Below are positions 4,771 to 18,630 of a DNA stretch of 64,000 bases, piece after piece. Position numbers and translations under genes: made by a program. The stretch spans positions 77,368-141,367 of the forward strand of contig JAQUQS010000002.1 in assembly GCA_028715965.1 (NCBI GenBank), read 5' to 3'. A model generated the notes under the pieces. The model did no database searches, was not told the origin of the DNA, and worked only from the letters and a program-made list of their open reading frames with translations. This DNA is from Candidatus Omnitrophota bacterium (GTDB lineage: Bacteria; Omnitrophota; Gorgyraeia; Tantalellales; Tantalellaceae). The number at the start of each line of letters is the position of its first letter. Within the stretch, counting starts at the first letter, position 1.

Positions 4771-5262
4771 TTACACATTTTCCATGTCCGACTGTAAAGC
4801 TATCTTTCCCGTACGTACTATTTCCACTATCCCGTAAGGCCTCAGGAGCTCGACAAGAGCCCCCACCTTATGCGCATCGCCTGATTCCTCGACAGTAAGG
4901 GTCTTCCTGCCTATATCTATGATCTCGGCTCCGGTGGAGTCGACCACCTGCACTATCTTCTCCCTTACACCGGTATTCTCCGCTTTTACTTTTATCAATA
5001 TGAGCTCGCGATCGACATATTTCCCGCCGGTAAGGTCCTGTACCCTTATGACGTCTATGAGCTTATTGAGCTGCTTTTTGACCTGCTCGAGTATCTTTTC
5101 ATCCGCGTCCACCACTATGGTCATACGGGACGTGTCCGGGTCCTCGGTCTCCCCTACCGCCAGTGAATCAATGTTGAACCCACGGGCGGAAAAAAGACCC
5201 GCCACCCGGGCCAACACACCGAACTTGTTCTCGACAAGCGCCGAGATAATGAATCTGGGCAT
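4771..5262 (-). CDS. ilvH: Acetolactate synthase small (regulatory) subunit
   Basis: N-terminal ACT domain (ISALVENKFGVLARVAGLFSARGFNIDSL). It lies between ilvB and ilvC. Confidence 0.85.
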   Translation of the reverse strand: MPRFIISALVENKFGVLARVAGLFSARGFNIDSLAVGETEDPDTSRMTIVVDADEKILEQVKKQLNKLIDVIRVQDLTGGKYVDRELILIKVKAENTGVREKIVQVVDSTGAEIIDIGRKTLTVEESGDAHKVGALVELLRPYGIVEIVRTGKIALQSDMENV

Positions 5263-5283
5263 TTCTTTTCTCCTGCTTTTTTG

Positions 5284-6981
5284 TTAGGCCAGACCATGCA
5301 ACATATTGCTTATGGTCTCCCCGGCCGGGACCATCGGGAAAACGTTCTCTTCCCGCTCGATAATGAAATCCATTATCACGGGTCCCTTTTCCTTAAGCGC
5401 TTCTTTTATCGCTTTTTTCACGTTCTTTTTCTCTGAAATCCTTATACCTTTAGCGCCATAGCTTTCCGCCAGTTTGACGAAATCGGGGCATACGGTCGCC
5501 GCCTTTTCCGACAGCACCGTCCATGCGTATCTTTTGTCATAGAACAGTTCCTGCCACTGCCGGACCATACCGAGATATCCGTTGTTCAATATGGCTATCT
5601 TGACCGGTATCTTCTCGATAACGGCCATAGCGAGTTCCTGGATGTTCATCTGGATACTGCCGTCACCGGCTATATCAAAAACGATATGGTCGGGTTTCCC
5701 TACCTGCGCGCCTATGGCCGCGGGGAACCCGAATCCCATCGTCCCGAGACCGCCGGAAGATATCCAGGTCCGCGGTTTCGTGTATGTATAATGTTGCGCC
5801 GCCCACATCTGGTTCTGCCCGACCTCCGTAGCGATTATGACATCCTTATCTTTCGTGATCTCACATATCTGCTCGATGATATACTGGGGCCGGAGCTTGT
5901 CATCGTTCTTGTATTTAAGCGGGAAATCCCTCTTCCACTCCGCTATCTTGCCTCTCCACGCGGCATAATCACCCTTCCTGGCATGCGCGTTAAGTTCCTT
6001 AAGAACAAGCCGCGCGTCGCCGATTATGGGGATATCTACACTGACGTTCTTGCTCACGCTGGACGGATCTATATCTATGTGCGCAATGGTCGCGTTCGGG
6101 GCGAACGTATCTATACGACCCGTGACACGGTCATCGAACCTCGCTCCGACCGCTATGATAAGGTCCGCCTCCTGCACAGCAAGGTTAGCGTAAGCCGTCC
6201 CGTGCATACCCAGCATACCGAGGCTGAGCGGATCATCCCCGGGGAATGCCCCCAGGCCCATCATCGTGGTAGTGACCGGTATTTCCATCTTCCTGGCCAA
6301 TTTCGTGATCTCTACATTCGCCCCATCCGAGAGGACGATGCCGCCACCCGCATATATCAGCGGTTTCTTGCTCCTGGTCATGGTCTTAGCCAGTTTTTTT
6401 ATCTGGCCGATATGCCCTTTATACGTCGGCTTGTATCCTTTCAGGTCCACCGTTTTCGGATACCTGAATTCGGCCTGCTGAAGCTGCACATCCACAGGAA
6501 GATCTATGAGCACCGGACCGGGGCGACCCGTCCGCGCTATATGGAAAGCTTCCTTGACCACCTTTGCCAGTTCGTTGACATCCTTTACAAGATAGTTATG
6601 TTTTGTTATCGGACGCGTTATGCCGACCATATCGGCTTCCTGAAAAGCGTCATTACCGATAAGCGCGCACTTGACCTGGCCGGTTATCGCGACTATCGGT
6701 ATGGAATCCATATGTGCCGTAGCTATACCCGTAACAAGGTTAGTGGCTCCAGGCCCCGAAGTGGCCACGCAAACGCCTACTTCCCCGGTAGCGCGAGCGT
6801 ATCCGTCAGCGGCATGTACAGCTCCCTGCTCATGTCGCGTGAGATGGAAGGTTATGTCCTTATTCCCGAACATCTTATCCGCAAGCGGGATGACAGATCC
6901 GCCGGGATAACCGAAAATATGCTTCACACCTTCTTCAACTAGACTTTTAATAAGTATCTCAGCCCCGGTCACCTTAGACAT
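5284..6981 (-). CDS. ilvB: Acetolactate synthase large (catalytic) subunit
   Basis: ThDP-enzyme architecture with the GYPGGSVIP... N-terminus, a central FAD-binding region and C-terminal ThDP motifs (GDGSIQMN). The ATG at 6979-6981 has a GGAGAAGAG SD. Confidence 0.9.
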   Translation of the reverse strand: MSKVTGAEILIKSLVEEGVKHIFGYPGGSVIPLADKMFGNKDITFHLTRHEQGAVHAADGYARATGEVGVCVATSGPGATNLVTGIATAHMDSIPIVAITGQVKCALIGNDAFQEADMVGITRPITKHNYLVKDVNELAKVVKEAFHIARTGRPGPVLIDLPVDVQLQQAEFRYPKTVDLKGYKPTYKGHIGQIKKLAKTMTRSKKPLIYAGGGIVLSDGANVEITKLARKMEIPVTTTMMGLGAFPGDDPLSLGMLGMHGTAYANLAVQEADLIIAVGARFDDRVTGRIDTFAPNATIAHIDIDPSSVSKNVSVDIPIIGDARLVLKELNAHARKGDYAAWRGKIAEWKRDFPLKYKNDDKLRPQYIIEQICEITKDKDVIIATEVGQNQMWAAQHYTYTKPRTWISSGGLGTMGFGFPAAIGAQVGKPDHIVFDIAGDGSIQMNIQELAMAVIEKIPVKIAILNNGYLGMVRQWQELFYDKRYAWTVLSEKAATVCPDFVKLAESYGAKGIRISEKKNVKKAIKEALKEKGPVIMDFIIEREENVFPMVPAGETISNMLHGLA

Positions 6982-7023
6982 CTCTTCTCCTAATATTAAT
7001 AGTTATTTCCTATTTATATATAT

Positions 7024-7047
7024 AAAAAAACACGCATAGCTATGCGT
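7024..7047 (-). terminator. Hairpin plus U7 tract in the 5' region of ilvB. It is either the alr terminator or a leader terminator/attenuator.
   Basis: On the minus strand, the perfect palindrome ACGCATAGCTATGCGT is followed by GTTTTTTTATATATA. It lies 35-65 nt upstream of the ilvB ATG and just downstream of a consensus -10. Confidence 0.5.
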
Positions 7048-7053
7048 TTAATA

Positions 7054-7081
7054 AGTATAACACAACGAAAACCTTTGTCAA
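7054..7081 (-). promoter_or_regulatory. Sigma70-like promoter of the ilvBHC-leuA operon
   Basis: Minus strand TTGACA-N16-TATACT. The -35 reverse complement is at 7076-7081 and the -10 reverse complement at 7054-7059. Confidence 0.5.
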
Positions 7082-7174
7082 GATTATGCTTATAGGCACC
7101 CGGAAAGGCGCCCGGGCGGCATACATATCAGTATAGACAACTTTTCCGGGAGGACCACTGCATATGATATCCGG

Positions 7175-7197
7175 ATATAACCGCCGGTAGCCGGCGG
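7175..7197 (-). terminator. Putative alr terminator hairpin
   Basis: Palindrome CCGCCGG-TAG-CCGGCGG (7181-7197) lies 8 nt after the alr stop. On the minus strand it is followed by TTATATCCGGATAT, a weak U tract that is itself a palindrome. Confidence 0.4.
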
Positions 7198-7204
7198 AGC
7201 ATCT

Positions 7205-8350
7205 TTAACTTTGATCTATATATATGCGCGGCACACGATCGGTGACGGAAGCAAGTATCTCATACGGTATGGTCCCGGAATGTTTGGCGATCTTTTCTAT
7301 CGGTATTTCCGAGAAACCCTGCCTTCCGATAAGAACGACCTCATCCCCGACCTGCACTCCCCCTATATCACCCACATCCAGCATGGTCTGGTCCATGGTC
7401 ACGATACCGACAACTTTCACGAATTTGCCCTTGATCAGGGCTTCCGCCTTGTTGGAAAGTATCCTTCCGTATCCATCCGCGTAACCTATCGGGATGGTCG
7501 CTATCTTGGTCTCCTTCTGGGTTATATAAGTACGTCCATAGCTTATGGAACGACCAACGGGCGCGTCTTTTAGATATACGATCTTCGTTTTAAGGCTCAT
7601 CACCGGACGCAGCTTGAAACTTTTCCGGAAAGCTTCTTTAGGATATACGCCATAAAGCAATATCCCGGTCCTCACCAGATTGAGGTGCGATCTCTTCCAG
7701 TCGACCACCGCTACGCTATTGGCGGCGTGTTTATACCTGACATTGATACCCGCCGCCTCGATCCCGGAAAGCACTTTCTCGAAACTTTCTATCTGCATTG
7801 TCGTGAACACCTTATCCCGCGCCGCGGACGAGAAATGCGTATATATGCCTTCGAGCTCTATGGACCCTTCTTCCCTGACATTTTTTATGAACTCCACGGC
7901 TTCCTCGTGCCACACTCCTATTCTTCCCATCCCGGTGTCGACCTCTATATGCACTTTGGGCCTCACACCCGTTCCCGCGGCGATATCCTTCAACAGGGAA
8001 AGTACGCCCAGATCGCATAATGTGACCGTTAGATCGTTCTTTACCGCTATGACCGCCTCTTCCCTCAGTATCGACCCCATTACCAGGACAGGCACCGTCA
8101 TCCCGGCCTTCCTTATCCTCAGGCCCTCGTCTACCGTGGCCACGCCAAGATAGTTTATCCCGGCATCGACCAACGCGCGACTGGTCTCGACTATCCCGTG
8201 TCCGTATGCGTTAGCTTTTACTACCGCCATTATCGCGGTGTCCTTGTCCACAAGCTTACGTATACTCGCGAGGTTCCACCTGAGCGCCCTTAGGTCTATC
8301 TCCGCCCATGTAGGTCTGTAACTTTTCCTCTCCATCGTCATGCTATTCAC
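7205..8350 (-). CDS. alr: Alanine racemase
   Basis: AVVKANAYGHG PLP-lysine motif and an alanine-racemase-like length and C-terminal domain. Confidence 0.85.
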   Translation of the reverse strand: MNSMTMERKSYRPTWAEIDLRALRWNLASIRKLVDKDTAIMAVVKANAYGHGIVETSRALVDAGINYLGVATVDEGLRIRKAGMTVPVLVMGSILREEAVIAVKNDLTVTLCDLGVLSLLKDIAAGTGVRPKVHIEVDTGMGRIGVWHEEAVEFIKNVREEGSIELEGIYTHFSSAARDKVFTTMQIESFEKVLSGIEAAGINVRYKHAANSVAVVDWKRSHLNLVRTGILLYGVYPKEAFRKSFKLRPVMSLKTKIVYLKDAPVGRSISYGRTYITQKETKIATIPIGYADGYGRILSNKAEALIKGKFVKVVGIVTMDQTMLDVGDIGGVQVGDEVVLIGRQGFSEIPIEKIAKHSGTIPYEILASVTDRVPRIYIDQS

Positions 8351-9026
8351 CTTTTTTCAGGGTAATATTGCATTCTTTCGCGTGCAGATACATGGGGTCC
8401 ACATCTTCGGGTGGATCGAACTCGCCAGCAGCCGCCTTTGCCGCCCCCATCTCTCCGATATGTATAGCTTTGGGATACCAGTCCGCGTCCGGCGACACGT
8501 CCTTTATCCCGTTACTATCCAATATATCCCGGTATTTCTCCACGGCATCACCGTAAATGAATACATCCTTATCCACCGTACGGAGAACATCCTCCGCTTT
8601 CGCCAGAAGATACCCGGTCACCCTGGTGGACGCGGTGTTTTTCCTTTCATACAAAGCCGTATACACCTTTTCTTTCCTGGCGTCCAGGAAAGGCATTATT
8701 TTCTTCTTGCCGGACGGAGCGTTCATCGCGATAGCGTCCATACTGGACACACCGGCTATCTTTATACCGATCGCGGCTGCCAGGCCTTTTGCCGTTGATA
8801 TGGCTATGCGAAGCCCGGTGAAAGAACCGGGCCCCAGCCCAACGCTCACCAGTTCCACATCCCTTATGTTCCATCCGGACGAGGCCAGTATATCCTTTAT
8901 GCAGGGTACCAGTATCTCGCTGTGTTTAATACCAACGTCCTCGTGCATGGAGGAGACCACTTTCGCGCCCTCCATGAGCGCAATACTAAGGAACTTGGTG
9001 GATGTGTCAAAAGCTATTTGCCGCAT
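8343..9026 (-). CDS. tsaB: tRNA threonylcarbamoyladenosine biosynthesis protein TsaB (YeaZ)
   Basis: GPGSFTGLRIAISTAKGLA motif of the inactive Kae1/TsaD paralog. Adjacent to tsaE. Confidence 0.8.
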   Translation of the reverse strand: MRQIAFDTSTKFLSIALMEGAKVVSSMHEDVGIKHSEILVPCIKDILASSGWNIRDVELVSVGLGPGSFTGLRIAISTAKGLAAAIGIKIAGVSSMDAIAMNAPSGKKKIMPFLDARKEKVYTALYERKNTASTRVTGYLLAKAEDVLRTVDKDVFIYGDAVEKYRDILDSNGIKDVSPDADWYPKAIHIGEMGAAKAAAGEFDPPEDVDPMYLHAKECNITLKKGE

Positions 9027-9493
9027 ATCTCCTCTATCCTGCGAGCGGGGAATTTGCCCGAAACCTTAAAAGTGAACCGCCGTCCTTCCGTGCCGGCATG
9101 TTCTATCAGTATCTCCAGCCTGTCCTCGGGAAGCAGGCCCGGGATCTTATCCGCCCATTCCACCACGGTTATGCCGTCACCATAAAAATAACTTTCATAA
9201 TCAAGCGTATCGACAAGCGCGTCTTCTTCCAGCCTGTACACGTCAAAATGGTAAAGCGCCGTCCGCCCGTAATATTCTTTCATTATGACGAACGTAGGAC
9301 TGTTGACATAAACATACCCATCCACTCCAAGCCCTTTGGCCAGCCCCTTAACGAACATGGTCTTGCCGGCACCCAACTCTCCCGTAAGCGCGATGAAGTC
9401 CCCTTTTTCGAGGACGGACCCTATGCGCGAACCCAGTTCTATGGTATCTTCCGGCGTCTGTGTCTGTCTGGTATACATGAACCCCGCCTTCAC
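9014..9493 (-). CDS. tsaE: tRNA threonylcarbamoyladenosine biosynthesis ATPase TsaE (YjeE)
   Basis: Walker A GELGAGKT and a YjeE-like size. Overlaps tsaB. Confidence 0.8.
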   Translation of the reverse strand: MKAGFMYTRQTQTPEDTIELGSRIGSVLEKGDFIALTGELGAGKTMFVKGLAKGLGVDGYVYVNSPTFVIMKEYYGRTALYHFDVYRLEEDALVDTLDYESYFYGDGITVVEWADKIPGLLPEDRLEILIEHAGTEGRRFTFKVSGKFPARRIEEICGK

Positions 9494-9501
9494 GGCCCTT
9501 T

Positions 9502-10398
9502 CTAGATATGCCGGTACCCTTCCATGGCAAGAGGCGAGAAACCGCCCTTATCATCCTTTACGCGCATACCTTCTTTTTTCGCGACCACGCGCCCTATCCT
9601 GAAAACACGGCAATTGCCGTATTTCCCCTTTTTCCCGGCCTCCAGTCTGGCCGCGTCATTTTCGGGCACGGTGAACAGCAGCTCAAAACTTTCCCCGTAA
9701 TACAACGCGTCGGCCAGGTCCAGTCCAGCGGATAACGGTATATCTTTTCCGTCCAGGACCACCCCCACGCCGCTTTCCGCGCATATCCTGCCCATATCCA
9801 TGGCTATTCCGTCGGAGGTATCTATCATGGCGGTCACCCCGCAAACGGATGTTATGGCCCTGGCTTCTTTGACCCGTGGAATAAAGTCAAGATGCGTCCT
9901 CCTGCCGTTCCTGACCGGTCCGGTTATCATCACAACGTCACCTTTACGCGCGCCGGAACGCAAGGTCAATCTTTCTTTTTCCACCTCGCCCAGTATCGAC
10001 ACATCTATAACAAGCCTGCCTGCCCGGTTAGTATCCCCGCCAAGCACGATCACTCCATATTCCTTACACATATCCAGTATACCGTCGTATAAAAGGTCCA
10101 ACGATCGGGCGGTGGTCCCGCGTGGTATCCCCAGGCTAACAAGCACATATTTAGGGATCCCGCCCATTGCCGCTATATCGCTAAGGTTCACCGCTACGGC
10201 CTTCCTGCCGGCCTTTCCGTAACCGCACTCCCTCAAACGGAAGTGCGTACCGTCGACGAGCATGTCCGCCGCCCATAGGATATACTTCCCATCATGTCCC
10301 TCGATCACGGCGCAATCGTCACCGATGCCGGCGCGGATACCGCGAGGCGGCCTGCCCGCGCGGGAACGTATACGCTCTATGAACGCGAGTTCTTTCAT
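9502..10398 (-). CDS. thiL: Thiamine-monophosphate kinase
   Basis: AIR-synthase-related fold, GIGDDCAV N-terminal motif, ThiL-like length. Confidence 0.8.
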   Translation of the reverse strand: MKELAFIERIRSRAGRPPRGIRAGIGDDCAVIEGHDGKYILWAADMLVDGTHFRLRECGYGKAGRKAVAVNLSDIAAMGGIPKYVLVSLGIPRGTTARSLDLLYDGILDMCKEYGVIVLGGDTNRAGRLVIDVSILGEVEKERLTLRSGARKGDVVMITGPVRNGRRTHLDFIPRVKEARAITSVCGVTAMIDTSDGIAMDMGRICAESGVGVVLDGKDIPLSAGLDLADALYYGESFELLFTVPENDAARLEAGKKGKYGNCRVFRIGRVVAKKEGMRVKDDKGGFSPLAMEGYRHI

Positions 10399-11471
10399 GC
10401 TTTACCCGGCTTTTTTTCGCGGCCCGCCGCCAGTGTTCTTTTTATCTTTTCGGCGTCTGGTCTCTTTATCAGGCCCAGTTCCGTTATTATCGCCGTTATA
10501 AGCTTTGCGGGGGTCACATCGAACGACGGATTATGGACATCTATACCCGGAACAGATATATGTTTTCCGCATATTTTCCTCACTTCGTCCGGATGCCGCT
10601 GTTCTATCTTTATCCCCCTGCCGGTCCTTGTGGACAGGTCGAAAGTAGATGCCGGCGCGGCGACATAGAACGGCACTTTATGATAAGCGCAAAGTACCGC
10701 AAGATTATACGTCCCTATCTTGTTGGCCGTATCACCGTTAGCCGCTATCCGGTCGGCGCCGACAATGACCGCGTCTATCTCTCCGGTCGCCATGACGGAC
10801 GCAGCCATATTATCCGTTATAAGCACGGCCGGGATACCGGCACTCGTGAGTTCCCACGCGGTAAGCCGTGCCCCCTGGAGCACCGGACGCGTCTCATCGA
10901 CGTAGACCTTCTTTATCCTGCCCTTGGAGGAATACATCACTCCCAGGGCAGTGCCATATGATGCCGTGGCAAGTCCACCGGCGTTACAATGCGTAAGAAG
11001 CGTTGACCCACGGCGTATAAGGACCGCCCCGTTCCTGCCTAACGCCCGGCAGATCCGGTCATCTTCCCGCAATATATCGTGCGCCTCTTTCAGCAGCATC
11101 TTTTTTATCGTCCCGACCCCGCGGCCGCTGTTCCTGACGGCCACTCGCTCCATACGCTCAAGCGCCCAGAAAAGGTTCCTGGCCGTAGGCCTGGACCCGG
11201 CAAGTTCGGCCACCGCTTTTTTCACATCTTTAAGGAAACCCTCCCCGCTTGACGCCTTACTTCCCCTAACGCCAAGGTATACGCCGTAAGCTCCCGCCAC
11301 ACCTATGGCTGGGGCCCCCCTGACTTTCATCTTCGTTATCGCTTCATATATGTCTTTCAGCGTTCCGCATCTAACATAACGCAATCGAGCGGGCAGAAGC
11401 CTCTGGTCCACCAACTCCACATTCCCGTTCTTCCATCGTATGGTCTCAACACACATCCCTGTCCCCTTCAC
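10395..11471 (-). CDS. mtnA: S-methyl-5-thioribose-1-phosphate isomerase (eIF-2B alpha/beta/delta family)
   Basis: VRGAPAIGVAGAYGVYLG and general MtnA/eIF2B-like features. Overlaps thiL by 4 nt. Confidence 0.7.
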   Translation of the reverse strand: MKGTGMCVETIRWKNGNVELVDQRLLPARLRYVRCGTLKDIYEAITKMKVRGAPAIGVAGAYGVYLGVRGSKASSGEGFLKDVKKAVAELAGSRPTARNLFWALERMERVAVRNSGRGVGTIKKMLLKEAHDILREDDRICRALGRNGAVLIRRGSTLLTHCNAGGLATASYGTALGVMYSSKGRIKKVYVDETRPVLQGARLTAWELTSAGIPAVLITDNMAASVMATGEIDAVIVGADRIAANGDTANKIGTYNLAVLCAYHKVPFYVAAPASTFDLSTRTGRGIKIEQRHPDEVRKICGKHISVPGIDVHNPSFDVTPAKLITAIITELGLIKRPDAEKIKRTLAAGREKKPGKA

Positions 11472-11483
11472 TTCCCCCCCTCG

Positions 11484-12581
11484 TCACACTCCAAGGCTCC
11501 TGACCACGAACACCAGAAGCAGCATCACCAGGTTATGCGTAATATGCACGGTTATCGACGGTATGATGGATCCTGTCCTCTCATACAGGTATGACAATAG
11601 CATACCCAGGGCCAGTATGGGCAACAGCCCCACGAGGTGCGCGTGTAATACCGAAAATATCGACGCCGTGACCAGCATCGACGGCAACATACCGAACCTG
11701 TTCCTCAAGGCGCTGTACATGAACCCCCGGAAGAACACCTCTTCCGCCACCGGGCCGAACACAGCCGCGAAGACCACCGTGAACCAGAGGATGTAATCGG
11801 CCTTCTCCTCCAGGAAAAGCTCTACAATGGGCTGTACCGGCGGCTGGTATCCGGTGATCTTCACCACAACATAAGTTATCATGATCACGACAACAAGTAC
11901 CGGCAGCAAAGCGACATACCCTGCCAGCCCGTACATCACGGAAACGAACCCATGGCCCGGGGATAACCCGATGGAATCCATCGCCTGGCCGTATTTCTTC
12001 CGGATAAAACAATATATGACACCTATCCCGATGATGTTCATGGCGAAGGTATCGAACACCATGCGGAAGTTCTCGTTGGCCAGTACCGGCAGCCATCTCG
12101 ACAAAAAGCCCAGAAGGATCACTATGGCATATCCCGACGACAGGAATATAAGACCTACCCGCAGGATATCCGATATAGCCCATTTCGCGCGGGGCCTTCC
12201 CATGATCTCGATGTCGACCGCCTCGCCCCTGGCCTTCCTGGACAATAAATAGACATCAAGAACAACACCTATGAGTATTATCACCATTATTAAGAGGTTG
12301 AGACTGGCGATGAACAGGAAAAGATGCGGGTTATCCCCCGCCAGCGTTTCCAGTTTCCGCTGTCTTTCCTCAACTTCCGCGTCGTCGAAGATACCCTTCT
12401 GCCGGGTGGACGACACATCAGCCCCTTCGCTTTCCGCGGGAGCATAAGCCTCTTCAGCCGTCGCGGCCGGGCCCTGCCGGTCCTTTCCCAAAAAGACCAG
12501 GATATTGACGGAAAGTATGAACAGGACAAGCAGCACATAGATCCTGTTCTTTCTTATGGCCTCGATCATGCGGGGCATCAT
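11484..12581 (-). CDS. CPBP (CAAX protease / Abi) family intramembrane glutamic metalloprotease
   Basis: Polytopic membrane protein with the EEVFFRGF ... FSVLHA ... HITHN motif set of the CPBP family. Confidence 0.7.
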   Translation of the reverse strand: MMPRMIEAIRKNRIYVLLVLFILSVNILVFLGKDRQGPAATAEEAYAPAESEGADVSSTRQKGIFDDAEVEERQRKLETLAGDNPHLFLFIASLNLLIMVIILIGVVLDVYLLSRKARGEAVDIEIMGRPRAKWAISDILRVGLIFLSSGYAIVILLGFLSRWLPVLANENFRMVFDTFAMNIIGIGVIYCFIRKKYGQAMDSIGLSPGHGFVSVMYGLAGYVALLPVLVVVIMITYVVVKITGYQPPVQPIVELFLEEKADYILWFTVVFAAVFGPVAEEVFFRGFMYSALRNRFGMLPSMLVTASIFSVLHAHLVGLLPILALGMLLSYLYERTGSIIPSITVHITHNLVMLLLVFVVRSLGV

Positions 12582-12582
12582 G

Positions 12583-13959
12583 TCATCCTACTACGTTCAT
12601 TCTTCTCAATCTGAATCTCGCGCCATGTTCCCCGGCTATACGCCGGCAGGCGCCCACCTCTTCCTCACTTATCACATCCACGCACGTAAGCTCCACTTCC
12701 AGGCCTTCGGCCAGGCATTCGTCCGCGAATTCCAGAATGGCCCGGTATGTCCCATCCCCAAAAACAGGTTCGCACAACTTCACGTATGTTCCGGCATCGG
12801 GCGCGTTAAGGCTTATGGACACCGAGTCCACCAGGCCCTTGAGTTCCGGGGCTATCTTCCTTGAATTTATCAGGTCTCCCTCCCCGTTGGTGTTCAGCCT
12901 TACCTTCTTGCCTTTTTTCTTTATCTCCGCGGCCACATCCTTGATCACATCCAGCCTCAAAGTAGGCTCGCCGTACCCGCAAAAAACTATCTCATCGTAC
13001 CCGGAAATATCACCCATGGCGCTTATCACCTCTTCCGCGGGCGGTTCCGACGGAAGAGCGAGCTTGTGCCCTTTTACATAATCGGAATACTGCCGGGTGC
13101 AGAACGAACACCGGTTAGTACACCGGTTCGTTATGTTCAGGTAAAGGGATCCTCTTATTGGATAGGCTATGGAAAAACTCTCCTCCAGGCCAAGTCCGAA
13201 CAAGCTGTTGGCGTTATGCGATGTTATCCTGGCCATATCAAAGGCGGTATGTCCGTATATTTCGGCATATACGTCGACAAGATACCTGACGTTCGCGGGT
13301 TCGTTCCTCTTTCCCCTGTGCGGGACTGGAGTGATATACGGCGCGTCCGTTTCCAGTAAAAGCCTGTCCATGGGGACCACTTCTATGGCCTCGCGTGCCC
13401 CTCCATTTCCCGGGAACGTTATATACCCCGCGAAAGAGACATGTAGCCCGAGGGAAAGAAATCCCCTGAGGACATCGATCTCCTCCGAAAAGCAATGCAC
13501 TACCCCGCCGGCGGCCGGCATCCCCTCAGACCTCACCATCTCCAGCAGTTCCCTCCCGGCGGCACGACTGTGCAGTATCACGGGCCTTTCATACTCCCTG
13601 GCCAGGTCAAGACACTCTGACAGAAGCTTCCTCTGGGCTTCCGGCGACGAATAGTGCCTGTAGTTATCCAGGCCTATCTCTCCTATCGCCACTATCTTGG
13701 CCTTATTGCCCAGGAGTTCACGCAGGCCGGATATATCATTCGCGGTATATTTGTCCGCGTCATGCGGGTGTATCCCGACCGCGCAGTATATATCGTCGTG
13801 CTCAGAGGCAAGCTTGACGGCCTTCCTCGAGCTTTCAAGGTTTATTCCCGGGACCACCATCCTTACCACTCCGGATCCAGCCGCTCTCGCGATAACGGCT
13901 TCCAGGTCGTCCTTGTATTCGGGAAGGTCAAGATGGCAATGCGTATCAACCAGTCTCAT
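12583..13959 (-). CDS. Fusion protein: TatD-family metal-dependent hydrolase (N-terminal) plus radical SAM domain (C-terminal)
   Basis: The N-terminal part begins MRLVDTHCHLD (TatD signature), with further HxH/E/D metal ligands up to about residue 260. The C-terminal part has LYLNITNRCTNRCSFCTRQ (a CxxxCxxC radical SAM cluster). The start was moved to the ATG at 13957-13959, which overlaps the upstream stop as ATGA. The ORF-track GTG extension to 14163 overlaps the upstream gene. Confidence 0.75.
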   Translation of the reverse strand: MRLVDTHCHLDLPEYKDDLEAVIARAAGSGVVRMVVPGINLESSRKAVKLASEHDDIYCAVGIHPHDADKYTANDISGLRELLGNKAKIVAIGEIGLDNYRHYSSPEAQRKLLSECLDLAREYERPVILHSRAAGRELLEMVRSEGMPAAGGVVHCFSEEIDVLRGFLSLGLHVSFAGYITFPGNGGAREAIEVVPMDRLLLETDAPYITPVPHRGKRNEPANVRYLVDVYAEIYGHTAFDMARITSHNANSLFGLGLEESFSIAYPIRGSLYLNITNRCTNRCSFCTRQYSDYVKGHKLALPSEPPAEEVISAMGDISGYDEIVFCGYGEPTLRLDVIKDVAAEIKKKGKKVRLNTNGEGDLINSRKIAPELKGLVDSVSISLNAPDAGTYVKLCEPVFGDGTYRAILEFADECLAEGLEVELTCVDVISEEEVGACRRIAGEHGARFRLRRMNVVG

Positions 13960-14285
13960 CTTATCATGCGGCCACCGCCGAATTTCACCCCTTCCTTCAG
14001 TAAAAGTTCTTTCTTTCGGGCCACGCCGGACGCGTACCCCCCTATACAGCCGTCGGACCTTATCACCCTGTGGCACGGTACCATGGGAGCGTACGGGTTC
14101 GCCGAAAGCGCCCCCCCTACGGCCCGCGTGGCCTTGGGCGATCCTATCCTGCGAGCCACCCACGAATAGGACCGGACCTCCCCGGCCGGTATGTCCATGA
14201 TAGCCGTAAGCACTTTTTTCTGGAATCCGGTAAGGTAGTTATTATTCTTTATTTTGGCTATATATCCGGTACGACCGTGCGCCAT
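13956..14285 (-). CDS. O6-alkylguanine-DNA alkyltransferase, single C-terminal-domain type (MGMT/Ogt family)
   Basis: IPAGEVRSYSWVARRIGSPKATRAVGGALSANPYAPMVPCHRVIRSDGCIGGY carries the PCHRV active-site cysteine motif. The start was taken at MAHGRTG (ATG 14283-14285). It is translationally coupled (ATGA) to the TatD-radical SAM gene. Confidence 0.75.
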   Translation of the reverse strand: MAHGRTGYIAKIKNNNYLTGFQKKVLTAIMDIPAGEVRSYSWVARRIGSPKATRAVGGALSANPYAPMVPCHRVIRSDGCIGGYASGVARKKELLLKEGVKFGGGRMIR

Positions 14286-14290
14286 GGGTT

Positions 14291-15859
14291 TTATTTTATC
14301 CTCATAAAAAGCGGTTCGCCTTTCGCGACCTTGACACCCGCCAGCTTGTCCGGTTCCCACTTATCGTATACGGACGGTGAGATATCAGCTTTTATGTCGT
14401 CCCCCGCGCCAAGCTGCCGCCACATCTTATCCGCGGTTGCCGGCATGAAAGGCGCGATAGCTATGGCGGTCACGCGAAGCGCCTCCACAAGGTCCGCCAT
14501 TATAAGTTTTATGGCCTCCATATTTCCCTGTTTGGAATAGTTCCACGGCGCGGACGCCTCGATATATTTATTAGCGCGTCCCACTACGGTCTGCATGACC
14601 GTTTCCAGCGCTTCCTGGAGAAGCAGGTCACGCGACAGCATTTTCCCTTTCACGAGCGGTAATATCCCCTTTATCCCGGACCTTAGCTCATTGCTGCGCG
14701 CGAGTTGCGCGGGGTCACCCGGGTCCCGTGGCGCCGCCGGCACTACACCGTCGAAATATTTCTCGACCATGGTAAGAGTACGGTTAAGGAGGTTCCCCAG
14801 GTCATTGGCCAGGTCACTGTTGTACGTGGCAATGAACGCGTCCTCACTGAAAGACCCGTCCATACCCAGTTTCACGGCCTTTATCAGGAAATACCTCAAT
14901 GGGTCCACACCGTATTTCTCGATGAACGCGAGCGGATCGACCACATTGCCTTTGGACTTTGACATTTTGTCGGCGCCCATTTTCCACCATCCATGCGCGA
15001 ACACGGTCTTCGGCAGCTCAAGCCCCATAGCCTTCAACATTATCGGCCAATACACAGCATGGTGGCGAATTATGTCCTTCGCGATCAGATGGAAGTTCGC
15101 GGGCCAGAACCTCTCCCGCTCCCTGCCCGAGGCGCCTATCCCCGATACATAGTTGAGCAGGGCATCGAACCACACATACACCACGTATCCCTTATCGAAA
15201 GGAAGTTCTATCCCCCAGGACATGCGTTCCTTGGGACGGGATATGCAAAGATCCGTTAATTCCTCCCTCAGGAAACCCAGGACCTCGTTCCTGCGGAATT
15301 CCGGCATTATGAATGTCGGGTGCTCATTTATATATTCCAAGAGCCATTCACGGTATTTGCCCATCTTGAAAAAATAATTCTTTTCTTTTATCCTGCCCAG
15401 CGGCCTATTGCATTCGGGGCATACGCCGTTCTCGGCCTGTGTATCGGTCCAGAACGTCTCACACGGCGTACAGAACCATCCGTCATACTCGCCTTCCTCT
15501 ATCTCCCCTTTGTCCCACAATCCCTGGAGCATGTCCTGCACGAGTTTCCCGTGACCCGGATCCGTGGTACGGATAAAATAGTCATTACTTACGTTCAATG
15601 ACCCCCACGCCTCCCGGAACTTCACGACTATGGAATCCACGAATTCTTTCTCATGGCCCTTTTCCCCGTATTTCGCCAGGCTTACTTCCTCTATTTTCTC
15701 ACCATACTCATCCGTACCCGTCAGGAAGAATACATCCTCTCCGAGTATCCTGTGGAACCGGGCCAGGGTATCGGCCACTACCTGGGTATAAGCGTGCCCT
15801 ATATGCGGTTTCGCGTTAACATAATAGATCGGTGTAGTCACATAAAAAGTGCCGGACAT
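14291..15859 (-). CDS. metG: Methionyl-tRNA synthetase
   Basis: Class I HIGH motif (PHIGHAYT), KMSKS (KMSKSKGN) and zinc-knuckle cysteines. Confidence 0.9.
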   Translation of the reverse strand: MSGTFYVTTPIYYVNAKPHIGHAYTQVVADTLARFHRILGEDVFFLTGTDEYGEKIEEVSLAKYGEKGHEKEFVDSIVVKFREAWGSLNVSNDYFIRTTDPGHGKLVQDMLQGLWDKGEIEEGEYDGWFCTPCETFWTDTQAENGVCPECNRPLGRIKEKNYFFKMGKYREWLLEYINEHPTFIMPEFRRNEVLGFLREELTDLCISRPKERMSWGIELPFDKGYVVYVWFDALLNYVSGIGASGRERERFWPANFHLIAKDIIRHHAVYWPIMLKAMGLELPKTVFAHGWWKMGADKMSKSKGNVVDPLAFIEKYGVDPLRYFLIKAVKLGMDGSFSEDAFIATYNSDLANDLGNLLNRTLTMVEKYFDGVVPAAPRDPGDPAQLARSNELRSGIKGILPLVKGKMLSRDLLLQEALETVMQTVVGRANKYIEASAPWNYSKQGNMEAIKLIMADLVEALRVTAIAIAPFMPATADKMWRQLGAGDDIKADISPSVYDKWEPDKLAGVKVAKGEPLFMRIK

Positions 15860-15860
15860 T

Positions 15861-16829
15861 TTACTTCCCTTCTCCTTTTCTTTCCCTGCGAGAGTTCCTA
15901 TCCCTTTTTCCTTTGTTCTCTTTCTCTCCGGCAGTGGTGTTCCTGTCCCTTTTTCCTTTGTTCTCTTTCTCTCCTGCGGGGGCGTTCCTGTCTTTTTCTC
16001 TTTCCCTTTTCACCTGGTCAGCCCTGACATCGCGTATGATACCGTTCTCAAGCGATACGGTAACGGACCGCTGGAGCGGATTGACCGTTATCACCTTCCC
16101 TCTCCCGAACTCCGTATCTACTTCTTTTCCCGCCTTGGGCAGCCCCTTGGCGCACTCCTTATAGCACTCATGCTCATACGCCAGGCAACACATCAGCCTG
16201 CCGCAGAGACCGGATATCTTGGACGGGTTAAGCGGCAGGTTCTGTACTTTCGCCATCCTTATGGTCACCGGCTCAAAATCCTTCAGGAAGGATTTGCAGC
16301 ACAACTCCCGTCCACACGGCCCGCACCCACCCAGCATACGGGCTTCATCCCTCACGCCTATCTGTTTGAGCTCTATGCGCACCCGGAAAATACTCGCCAG
16401 GTTCTTCACGAGCTCCCTGAAATCCACCCTGCTTTCCGAAGTGAAATAAAAAATTATCTTGGACCTGTCGAATGAATATTCCGCGCCGACCAGCTTCATG
16501 GGCAGATTATGCTCACGTATCTTGTTCTCGCATATGTTCAAAAGGTCCTTGGTCTTTTCCCTGTTCTTGGCGATCTGTTCCTCATCCCACGGATTGGCCT
16601 TGCGTATGACCTTGCGTAACGGTTGCTCGAGCGACGAGATATCCTCGACGTTCTCATTGGGACAAACTATCTCGCCGTAATCCAGGCCACGATCCGCCTC
16701 TACTATCACCCGGTCCCCCGATTCGAACTTCATACCGTTAGAGATAAAGACCTTGATCTCACCGGCTTCCCTTAACTGTACCTGTACTATATCATGCATC
16801 AGTAAATCCTCCCGAAGATGAAGCTCCAC
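15861..16829 (-). CDS. ricT: PSP1-domain protein RicT/YaaT-like
   Basis: PSP1 C-terminal domain with a conserved Cys cluster (GGCGPCGRELCCKSF...CGRLMCCL). It lies between holB and metG, as in Bacillus. The start is a GTG. The C-terminal tail carries a charged tandem repeat. Confidence 0.75.
   Translation of the reverse strand: MELHLREDLLMHDIVQVQLREAGEIKVFISNGMKFESGDRVIVEADRGLDYGEIVCPNENVEDISSLEQPLRKVIRKANPWDEEQIAKNREKTKDLLNICENKIREHNLPMKLVGAEYSFDRSKIIFYFTSESRVDFRELVKNLASIFRVRIELKQIGVRDEARMLGGCGPCGRELCCKSFLKDFEPVTIRMAKVQNLPLNPSKISGLCGRLMCCLAYEHECYKECAKGLPKAGKEVDTEFGRGKVITVNPLQRSVTVSLENGIIRDVRADQVKREREKDRNAPAGEKENKGKRDRNTTAGEKENKGKRDRNSRRERKGEGK
15894..16010 (-). repeat. 45-bp tandem repeat (about 2.5 copies) at the 3' end of ricT, encoding AGEKENKGKRDRN x2
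   Basis: The plus-strand unit gttcct[a/g]tccctttttcctttgttctctttctctcc... recurs at 15894, 15939 and 15984 with period 45. Confidence 0.75.
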
Positions 16830-17030
16830 GTGTATACCCGTGGCTCCTAAATTATCCTCTTTCGCCTACTCTCTGTATACTATCCAGCTACGGAGGATCA
16901 TCCGCCGTTCCAACTTATAGCGAGATCCGCCGAAGCAATAGTCTCGCGAAGGCGGATAAACACCGTACGGCCTTTTCCATAGACCGTCGGTCGGTTATCG
17001 ATCTGTCCATCACTGGCCCGAAGGCCGATA

Positions 17031-18011
17031 TTACCCCTTCACCATACCCGGCAAGACCTGTGCCGCTATTTTCGGGTTGGCGTTCCCCATAAGGGCCCTG
17101 CGCACATTTACAAGACGTGCCATAAGAGCGTAAAGCTTGTCGGGCGAACTTTTCCCGAACATGGACATGAGTTCCCCGGCTGAAAGAGCTGTATCGGTCA
17201 TCCTGCTCTCCGCGCCGCTGACGACAAGTGCCGTATCCCTGACAAGCATGAGGACAAGCTCGATGTCTTCCGCCATCTGGAGCTTGTCCTCGACATCCCA
17301 ATTCATGCACCAGACGTTCTCTCCGGCCGCTATATCCTTAAGCAGTCTCATGACATCTTCCCGCCTCGCGACCACTCCCGTACGCGCTATTTCCAGGGCT
17401 TTTCCGGGCGACCCCTGGGAAAACCCGGCGAGAAAGGACAATTCACTTTCCCCTGTACCGTCAAGCTTGGAAGATATCACTTCTTTCGCGACGGGAATAG
17501 GCAGAGAGAAGAACCTTACCTCGCTGCACCTGGATACTACCGTGCGAGGCAATAGTTCCTTCTTATCCGTTATCAGGATAAGCATCGACCCGCCCGGCGG
17601 TTCCTCCAGTATCTTCAGCAGGGCATTAGCCGCGGATACCGTCAAAAGATGGGCGTCCTCTATCACACACACACTGGAGACGGCTTCAAAAGGCTTGAGA
17701 TTGAGCTTTTCCCGCGCCTGGCGTACCTCTTCTATCTTTATGGCTTTACCTTTTTCCGGCTTGATCCACAATACATCCGGATGTTCAAGCGCCTCTACAC
17801 GCCTGCATGTCGGGCATACGTCACAAGCTCTAGCCTCTTCAGGCTTTCCCGGGCACATTATCGCCCTGATAAAAGCCCTTGCGCATGAGGATCTTCCCAC
17901 GCCATCCGGTCCGGTAAAAAGATAGCTTGATGAGACCCGTCCCGCCGCGAGGCATCTGGTTAGGTATTTTATGGCGTTAGTCTGTCCCTTTATATCCGCG
18001 AATGACAGCAT
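17031..18011 (-). CDS. holB: DNA polymerase III delta-prime subunit
   Basis: AAA+ clamp-loader fold, zinc module CDVCPTCRR, SRC motif (TVVSRCSEVRF). Confidence 0.8.
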   Translation of the reverse strand: MLSFADIKGQTNAIKYLTRCLAAGRVSSSYLFTGPDGVGRSSCARAFIRAIMCPGKPEEARACDVCPTCRRVEALEHPDVLWIKPEKGKAIKIEEVRQAREKLNLKPFEAVSSVCVIEDAHLLTVSAANALLKILEEPPGGSMLILITDKKELLPRTVVSRCSEVRFFSLPIPVAKEVISSKLDGTGESELSFLAGFSQGSPGKALEIARTGVVARREDVMRLLKDIAAGENVWCMNWDVEDKLQMAEDIELVLMLVRDTALVVSGAESRMTDTALSAGELMSMFGKSSPDKLYALMARLVNVRRALMGNANPKIAAQVLPGMVKG

Positions 18012-18630
18012 ATACTTCTTCCCTGACCTTCCGGTAAATATCTTCTATATCACCTGAGGCATCCACGACCTTTATCCTTTCCCTGTTACGGGATGCTATT
18101 TCAAGATACCCCGTTCTTACTTTCTCGTGGAATTCCAGGCTCCTTTTCTCCACCCTGTCAGCCGACCTAGTGTTCGAGGCCCTCCTCAGGCCGGTCGCCA
18201 CTTCTATATCAAGTATGACCGTAAGGTCAGGGATCATCCCGCCCGTAGCCGCCAGGTCTATCGTACTGATAAGGTCCCTGGACATACCCAACCCGTATCC
18301 CTGGTAGGCCATGGTAGCAGTATTGAACCTGTCGCAAAGCACTATCCTGCCGGCCTTGATCGCCGGTCCTATCACCTCGATAACATGTTGCGCTCGGTCG
18401 GCCTCAAAAAGAAAGAGTTCCGACTCGGGAGAAAGCGCCACCTCGTCCTTCATAAGGAGTATTTCCCTTATCTTTCCACCCAGGCCGGTACTCCCGGGCT
18501 CCGCGGTGTGTACAACGTCGTATCCGTCAGAGACAAGCTCCTCGGCAAGACGACAGGAATGTGTACTTTTTCCGCTGCCTTCCGGCCCCTCAAATGTTAT
18601 AAAAACGCCTTTTTTCATTTTTTTCTCCAT
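17977..18630 (-). CDS. tmk: Thymidylate kinase
   Basis: P-loop FITFEGPEGSGKST plus DRF/lid region. The likely start is at MKKGVF. Confidence 0.85.
   Translation of the reverse strand: MEKKMKKGVFITFEGPEGSGKSTHSCRLAEELVSDGYDVVHTAEPGSTGLGGKIREILLMKDEVALSPESELFLFEADRAQHVIEVIGPAIKAGRIVLCDRFNTATMAYQGYGLGMSRDLISTIDLAATGGMIPDLTVILDIEVATGLRRASNTRSADRVEKRSLEFHEKVRTGYLEIASRNRERIKVVDASGDIEDIYRKVREEVYAVIRGYKGTD

Follow-up and report, generated by a model that had tools for sequence, protein, structure and literature searches.

The 64,000-nt window analyzed here is the whole stretch from position 77,368 to position 141,367 of contig JAQUQS010000002.1, from the Candidatus Omnitrophota bacterium assembly GCA_028715965.1. 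It contains a 458-amino acid (aa) gene in which a TatD-type hydrolase is fused to a radical S-adenosylmethionine (SAM) domain, directly downstream of a gene for a one-domain O6-alkylguanine-DNA alkyltransferase (MGMT). The interpretation judged probable places the 458-aa gene in the TIGR04038 family, as an ordinary example of its common fused form, with the MGMT as an incidental, co-inherited neighbor. Several phyla share the fusion, and in one Clostridiales bacterium its two domains are encoded by adjacent separate genes at the same metG-proximal locus. This recurrent fusion and adjacency with a housekeeping TatD of the YcfH/YabD type suggests that the two activities serve one pathway or substrate. 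By their open reading frames (ORFs), all genes of this region are encoded on the minus strand, and the features of the two genes are as follows, in window numbering.

12583..13959, minus strand: TatD-radical SAM fusion ORF, 458 aa
13195..13959, minus strand: TatD (YcfH/YabD-type) metal-dependent hydrolase/exonuclease domain, aa 1-255; PF01026 (aa 4-255), TIGR00010
13171..13194, minus strand: linker joining the two domains, about 8 residues (aa 256-263); lies between the domain envelopes given by Pfam and NCBIfam
12586..13170, minus strand: radical SAM domain of the TatD-associated family, aa 264-458; TIGR04038 (aa 264-454), PF04055
13099-13122, minus strand: CTNRCSFC (CxxxCxxC cluster motif), aa 280-287; read from the sequence
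12964-12984, minus strand: FCGYGEP (GGEP-type SAM-binding motif), aa 326-332; read from the sequence
Inside 12586..13170, minus strand: RLNTNG and SVSLNA motifs of the radical SAM domain; read from the sequence
12583..12585, minus strand: stop codon of the fusion; a CPBP/Rce1-like protease gene begins 1 nt later
13956..14285, minus strand: MGMT, one-domain O6-alkylguanine-DNA alkyltransferase (MGMT/Ogt C-terminal domain only), ATG at 14285, 109 aa; TIGR00589, PF01035
14064-14078, minus strand: PCHRV active site of MGMT, aa 70-74; read from the sequence
13956-13959, minus strand: ATGA overlap of the MGMT TGA stop and the fusion ATG start; read directly from the sequence

The two halves of the fusion and their distribution

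The N-terminal half of the fusion is a full-length TatD domain. It matches PF01026 over aa 4-255 with 265.8 bits (cutoff 27) and TIGR00010 with 253.1 bits (cutoff 206). The HxH, Glu, His, His and Asp set of TatD metal ligands is present as H7, H9, E94, H130, H155, and D205, and all six residues are invariant across 89 fused homologues. When the structures were compared with Foldseek, this half matched TM0667 (1j6o), the S. aureus proteins 6l25 and 2gzx, and E. coli YcfH (1yix), with TMt values of 0.90-0.96 and identities of 36-37%. The fold is that of the TIM-barrel amidohydrolases, with 1j6o, 6l25, 2gzx, 4p5u, and 1yix matched at root-mean-square deviations of 1.2-2.2 Å.

The C-terminal half matches TIGR04038 ("TatD family nuclease-associated radical SAM protein", tatD_link_rSAM) with 241.4 bits (cutoff 129.7) and aligns over aa 264-454 to profile positions 2-191 of 192, and it matches PF04055 with 66 bits. 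The CxxxCxxC motif is kept in all 133 full-length matches to the domain, and FCGxGEP, TNG, and SxN are invariant in the family alignments. Even in a diverse alignment, Y5, Y12, N14, T16, the three cluster cysteines, C-G-x-G-E-P, T-N-G, and one C-terminal Arg do not vary. Among the Omnitrophota relatives (window positions 12586-13959 compared with loci L003 and L083-L089), the radical SAM half is better conserved than the TatD half, with identities of 61-70% and 51-57%, respectively. Judged by their residues, both halves carry every catalytic motif, and both look functional in sequence and in the predicted structure.

A perfect 6-bp palindromic hairpin, ACCGGT-loop-ACCGGT, lies within the CxxxCxxC codons at window positions 13110-13127 and was flagged on both strands by a terminator scan. 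It is probably a by-product of the coding sequence.

The AlphaFold2 model of the fusion has a mean predicted local distance difference test score (pLDDT) of 95.2 and a predicted template modeling score (pTM) of 0.87, and the radical SAM domain modeled alone has a pLDDT of 95.9. In the model and in its Foldseek matches, this domain shows the partial TIM-barrel of the radical SAM core. The matches are to the generic core of BlsE, SkfB, NifB, PFL-AE (3c8f), TYW1, viperin, QueE, and MoaA, at identities of 15-23% and TMq values of 0.63-0.76. A sequence search of the domain against the PDB gave no match at E≤0.01, and in a profile search of the PDB only RlmN, CteB, MoaA, and NifB were matched, all weakly. 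As aligned and modeled, the C-terminal half consists of a minimal radical SAM core, about 195 aa long, that lacks a SPASM, twitch, or other extension, and its predicted structure does not reveal its substrate.

The preliminary description of this DNA, made from the sequence alone, had proposed that a TatD hydrolase was fused in one frame to a radical SAM domain carrying CTNRCSFC. This is borne out by the 458-aa ORF, which matches both PF01026 and the TatD-associated model TIGR04038 above their cutoffs, and by the radical SAM half, whose cluster-binding and SAM-binding motifs are complete and invariant on alignment. A longer ORF of 526 aa, from a GTG at 14163, is a mere in-frame upstream extension of the fusion frame across the MGMT gene.

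The fusion is genuine and widespread. An NCBI entry from a metagenome-assembled genome of Candidatus Omnitrophica matches the window protein with 100% identity, and the identical protein occurs on independent contigs with the same neighbors. More than 120 protein clusters (at 90% identity), all of 455-460 aa with PF01026 and PF04055, are 50-63% identical to it. When 1.84 billion representatives were scanned in full with HMMER, using only the radical SAM half as the query, 259 clusters (at 50% identity) were found at E<1e-30. Among the best 150 of these, 74 were at least 430 aa long (fused), 51 were at most 230 aa long (stand-alone), and 25 were intermediate or partial. A metagenome scan with the family alignment returned 80 loci, and one ORF encodes both TatD and the radical SAM domain in 73 of them; four are cut by a contig end and three are stand-alone. 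A contig scan with the single fusion protein as the query returned only one plain TatD locus from the Bacillota (L002).

Fused proteins are named from Planctomycetota, Magnetococcales, Auribacterota, and Omnitrophota. Stand-alone members, named "TatD family (nuclease-)associated radical SAM protein" in NCBI and IMG, come from anaerobic Firmicutes and from Saganbacteria; the names given are Thermosediminibacter, Fuchsiella, Thermovenabulum, Syntrophothermus, Clostridiales, Christensenellales, and Saganbacteria. In one Clostridiales bacterium, metG, TatD (255 aa), and the radical SAM protein (196 aa) are consecutive separate genes, with a 36-nt intergenic gap in place of the linker of the fusion and with yabE and ksgA further on. 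At another locus (L071), a stand-alone radical SAM gene lies upstream of a yabE-like gene, rnmV, and ksgA. This setting is that of the classical Firmicutes locus tatD(yabD)-yabE-rnmV-ksgA (PMC1084345), and yabD is the orthologue of ycfH (PMC3814617).

NCBIfam and IMG already list this family under its name and with its tie to TatD, and NCBI already contains the window protein. What is new is limited to one detail: in a single Omnitrophota clade, a one-domain MGMT that keeps its cysteine has been stably inserted ahead of the fusion gene.

The MGMT gene and the surrounding operon

The MGMT matches TIGR00589 with 101 bits (cutoff 46.4) and PF01035 with 111 bits, and it aligns to residues 95-175 of the C-terminal domain of Ada (Ada-C, 1sfe) with an E value of 1.5e-20. 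No N-terminal MGMT domain was found in the Pfam and NCBIfam scans, and the 18 residues ahead of the PF01035 domain match nothing. The PCHRV active site is kept in all seven aligned copies (the window and the L003-L089 relatives). The single domain with an intact PCHRV at aa 70-74, and the ATGA overlap at 13956-13959 between its stop and the start of the fusion, had both been noted in the preliminary description, and both observations stand. As part of the same probable interpretation, the MGMT would be a normal stand-alone suicide alkyltransferase and not a dedicated partner of the fusion.

The distribution of the MGMT was followed in nine Omnitrophota relatives, whose fusions are 51-66% identical to that of the window. 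In eight of them (L003, L083/84, L085/86, L087, L088, L089, L094, and L095), metG and the fusion are separated by a gene of 96-136 aa whose only Pfam domain is PF01035. In the ninth, L090, metG directly abuts the fusion and there is no MGMT. Outside this group, the remaining 79 metagenome loci (L004-L082) yielded no MGMT when a hidden Markov model (HMM) of the seven MGMTs was searched against all ORFs of at least 40 aa at E<0.1, and the split Clostridiales locus has none either. The same search rejects the idea that a diverged MGMT is hidden in the gaps between metG and TatD at the other loci. At least 22 of the 79 loci without MGMT have a metG match upstream of the fusion, usually preceded by PSP1. 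On the two points for which a survey was envisaged in the preliminary description, fused versus split arrangements and MGMT co-occurrence, the fused form is about as common as the split one, accounting for about half of the representatives, and among the loci sampled the adjacency of MGMT is confined to one Omnitrophota clade.

Within the MGMT-bearing clade, the whole block tmk-holB-PSP1-metG-MGMT-fusion-CPBP-mtnA-thiL-tsaE-tsaB is syntenic. Identities to the window copies among the relatives are 56-71% for MGMT, 62-66% for metG, and 54-62% for the fusion. Because the divergence of the MGMT tracks that of metG and the fusion and the block is syntenic, the sequences point to a single insertion of the MGMT between metG and the fusion in the ancestor of one Omnitrophota clade, followed by vertical inheritance with the operon. 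The block and several of its other genes are listed here.

8343..18630, minus strand: housekeeping block tmk, holB, PSP1/yaaT, metG, MGMT, TatD-radical SAM fusion, CPBP protease, mtnA-like, thiL, tsaE, tsaB; ORF coordinates with Pfam labels
15861-16829, minus strand: PSP1/YaaT-like protein, 322 aa; ORF and Pfam
14291..15859, minus strand: metG, directly upstream of MGMT and 5 nt from its start
11484-12581, minus strand: CPBP/Rce1-like intramembrane protease, PF02517, 365 aa; ORF and Pfam
10395-11471, minus strand: mtnA-like gene, PF01008; ORF and Pfam
9502-10398, minus strand: thiL; ORF and Pfam

The place of the fusion downstream of metG is that of yabD/tatD, as originally proposed. From tmk to tsaB, nine of the ten junctions are overlapping or no longer than 12 nt, and four overlap. 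The ATGA overlap seen between MGMT and the fusion also joins the mtnA-like gene and thiL (10395-10398, minus strand), and tmk/holB and tsaE/tsaB overlap as well. Since such overlaps are typical between unrelated genes of the block, the ATGA reflects the style of the operon and not a specific link between MGMT and the fusion. The junction itself varies among the relatives: it is -4 nt in the window and L089, -10 in L083, +1 in L085 and L087, +7 in L003, and +79 in L088. MGMT and the fusion are probably co-transcribed and translationally coupled, like most genes of the operon. Between window positions 8000 and 19000, promoter-like sites were no more frequent than in shuffled sequence. The same interval has 16 terminator-like hairpins, compared with a shuffled mean of 8.8 ± 2.9; no operon boundary was assigned from them, and the MGMT/fusion junction has none.

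Three further observations concern the neighboring genes. The CPBP/Rce1-like protease gene follows the fusion in every Omnitrophota relative sampled, including L090, which lacks MGMT, so that the linkage of this protease to the fusion is at least as conserved as that of MGMT. In L090, a gene with DUF362 and Fer4 (iron-sulfur) domains is inserted between the CPBP protease and mtnA (6445-7548), indicating that the otherwise rigid block tolerates single-gene insertions. Lastly, the C-terminus of the PSP1/YaaT-like protein (window 15861-16010, minus strand) carries a short tandem peptide repeat, RDRN..AGEKENKGK, in two to three copies in the translation. PSP1 is shorter in the relatives (262-274 aa vs. 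322 aa), and the repeat tail therefore appears to be specific to this genome.

Possible functions of the fusion

The recurrent fusion and adjacency of the two halves suggest that they share a substrate, which would most likely be a nucleic acid or nucleotide. The radical SAM domain is predicted to bind a [4Fe-4S] cluster via C280, C284, and C287. Reductive cleavage of SAM would then yield a 5'-deoxyadenosyl radical, which would abstract a hydrogen atom. The TatD domain would perform metal-dependent phosphoester hydrolysis, acting as a hydrolase or as a 3'-5' exonuclease.

Several points weigh against describing the gene simply as an ordinary family member beside an incidental MGMT. The structural comparison of the radical SAM half yields matches to the generic core only, at 15-23% identity. 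Some stand-alone members have no adjoining TatD gene (L091 from Anoxybacter fermentans, L061, and L076). A literature search on TatD-linked radical SAM proteins and TIGR04038 found, within the library covered, no biochemical or genetic study of any member, which agrees with the preliminary description of a recognized but biochemically uncharacterized family. In addition, the adjacency of MGMT in eight of the nine relatives is also compatible with a functional link specific to the clade, which these data cannot separate from the general synteny.

The stand-alone member L091 occupies positions 5001-5585 of its locus (A. fermentans, CP016379.1), where no TatD gene lies within 5 kb and genes for a glycosyl hydrolase 18 and a transaldolase flank it. 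The label "TatD-associated" is therefore not universal.

A different function for the fusion would be to act on RNA, in the processing or modification of tRNA or rRNA, with the TatD half trimming or deacylating its substrate and the radical SAM half modifying a nucleotide. The genomic setting is suggestive. The locus is conserved beside metG and, in Firmicutes, beside yabE-rnmV-ksgA (PMC1084345), and phylogenetic profiling links yabD/ycfH to the translation genes metG and ksgA (PMC3814617). Moreover, tsaE and tsaB are in the same block, the best PDB profile match of the radical SAM half, though weak, is the RNA methyltransferase RlmN (E 1.6e-4), and TYW1 is among the fold matches. However, the similarity to RlmN and TYW1 is that of the generic radical SAM core, the DNA-metabolism genes tmk, holB, and MGMT occur in the block too, and NCBIfam names the TatD subfamily a DNA exonuclease. 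On balance, action on RNA seems rather unlikely.

A dedicated repair module has less in its favor. The preliminary description had proposed that the fusion and its coupling to MGMT form a nucleic acid repair or modification module, and that the radical SAM half might repair lesions anaerobically in the manner of spore photoproduct lyase. In such a module, MGMT and the fusion would cooperate on alkylated or damaged DNA. E. coli TatD is a 3'-5' exonuclease implicated in the repair of peroxide damage, and DNA repair is a theme that it has in common with MGMT. The MGMT-fusion order is kept in eight of the nine Omnitrophota relatives, in which the fusions are 52-66% identical, and in most of them the stop of one gene and the start of the other overlap or nearly abut. 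The retention of PCHRV in all seven aligned MGMTs and the presence of tmk and holB in the same block are likewise in keeping with a DNA-directed role. Nevertheless, MGMT is missing from the 79 other family loci, many of which have the same PSP1-metG-fusion order, as well as from the Omnitrophota locus L090 and the split Clostridiales locus. CPBP, mtnA, thiL, tsaE, and tsaB are equally syntenic, and overlaps are the rule between unrelated genes of the block. In addition, neither the HMM nor the fold searches gave any specific likeness to spore photoproduct lyase, and what similarity there is extends only to the generic radical SAM core. The linkage to MGMT has a narrow phyletic range, which together with this want of specific similarity weakens the proposal to the point where it appears improbable, and the stable insertion of MGMT is weak evidence for a repair role.

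A similarly doubtful prospect is an undescribed anaerobic reaction of nucleic acid repair or modification, in which radical hydrogen abstraction and metal-dependent hydrolysis would act in succession on one lesion or nucleotide. MGMT would then be a true partner in this clade, and the three activities would form one damage-processing unit.

The radical SAM domain could also be an activase or maturase of the TatD domain or of another protein, comparable to small activating enzymes such as PFL-AE and NrdG. Its minimal core of about 195 aa is the size of activating enzymes, the top fold matches include PFL-AE (3c8f), the HMM matches include NrdG2, and a pTM of 0.87 over both domains suggests that they are arranged in a defined way. 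In contrast, TatD enzymes that have no radical SAM partner are active hydrolases, and TatD is not known to contain a glycyl-radical motif or any other motif for modification. As a fold match, PFL-AE does not surpass NifB, viperin, SkfB, or BlsE, and some stand-alone members have no TatD nearby. A role in activation is very improbable.

Finally, an assembly or sequencing artefact, by which a frameshift or missed stop had joined two genes, is practically ruled out by the identical protein on independent contigs and by more than 120 clusters and 73 of the 80 loci in which one unbroken ORF has this length; split forms do occur in other lineages, but no support for an artefact was found.

Comparison with known systems

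If the gene is, as seems probable, an ordinary fused member of TIGR04038 with MGMT as an incidental neighbor, its interest lies in the family. The TatD-associated radical SAM family is widespread in anaerobes and is found at a deeply conserved housekeeping locus, tmk-holB-metG-tatD. The fusion provides a "Rosetta stone" link between the TatD and radical SAM activities: if the two belong together, solving one would clarify the other, including the in vivo role of the YcfH/YabD-type TatD proteins. The window itself adds little beyond the catalogued family. It would not surprise a specialist, and it does not make the question of TatD/YcfH and radical SAM more testable.

Spore photoproduct lyase resembles the C-terminal half in being a radical SAM enzyme with a CxxxCxxC motif and a possible link to nucleic acids. 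It is absent, however, from the best 25 of the 38 NCBIfam matches, from the best 50 PDB fold matches, and from the PDB profile matches, and the window domain is a bare core of about 195 aa that lacks the additional substrate-binding elements.

The MGMT is similar to the Ogt and Ada C-terminal alkyltransferases in its PCHRV active site, its DNA-binding domain, and its alignment to Ada-C. Unlike Ogt, Ada, and human MGMT, it has no N-terminal domain. The alkyltransferase-like (ATL) proteins 3gva and 2kif are of similar length to this 109-aa protein, but the window MGMT retains the active-site cysteine, and its assignment as an ATL protein was rejected on this basis.

The TatD half shares its fold, its length, and all of its metal ligands with the TatD/YcfH/YabD hydrolases (PF01026, TIGR00010; 1j6o, 2gzx, 1yix), and it shares their genomic place after metG or holB (PMC3814617, PMC1084345). 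In contrast to the characterized and crystallized TatD proteins, which have no such extension, the window protein possesses a C-terminal radical SAM domain.

For the radical SAM half, the closest sister model is TIGR04100 (rSAM_pair_X), which scores 212 bits across the same 191 residues. This is below the 262-bit cutoff of that model, which, by its NCBIfam name, pairs with a partner protein other than TatD. In comparison, the agreement with TIGR04038 extends to near-full coverage of the profile, a score far above the curated cutoff, the CxxxCxxC and GxGEP motifs, and the physical link to a TatD hydrolase. Nothing essential sets the window protein apart from this family, and it represents the fused form found in about half of the family representatives.

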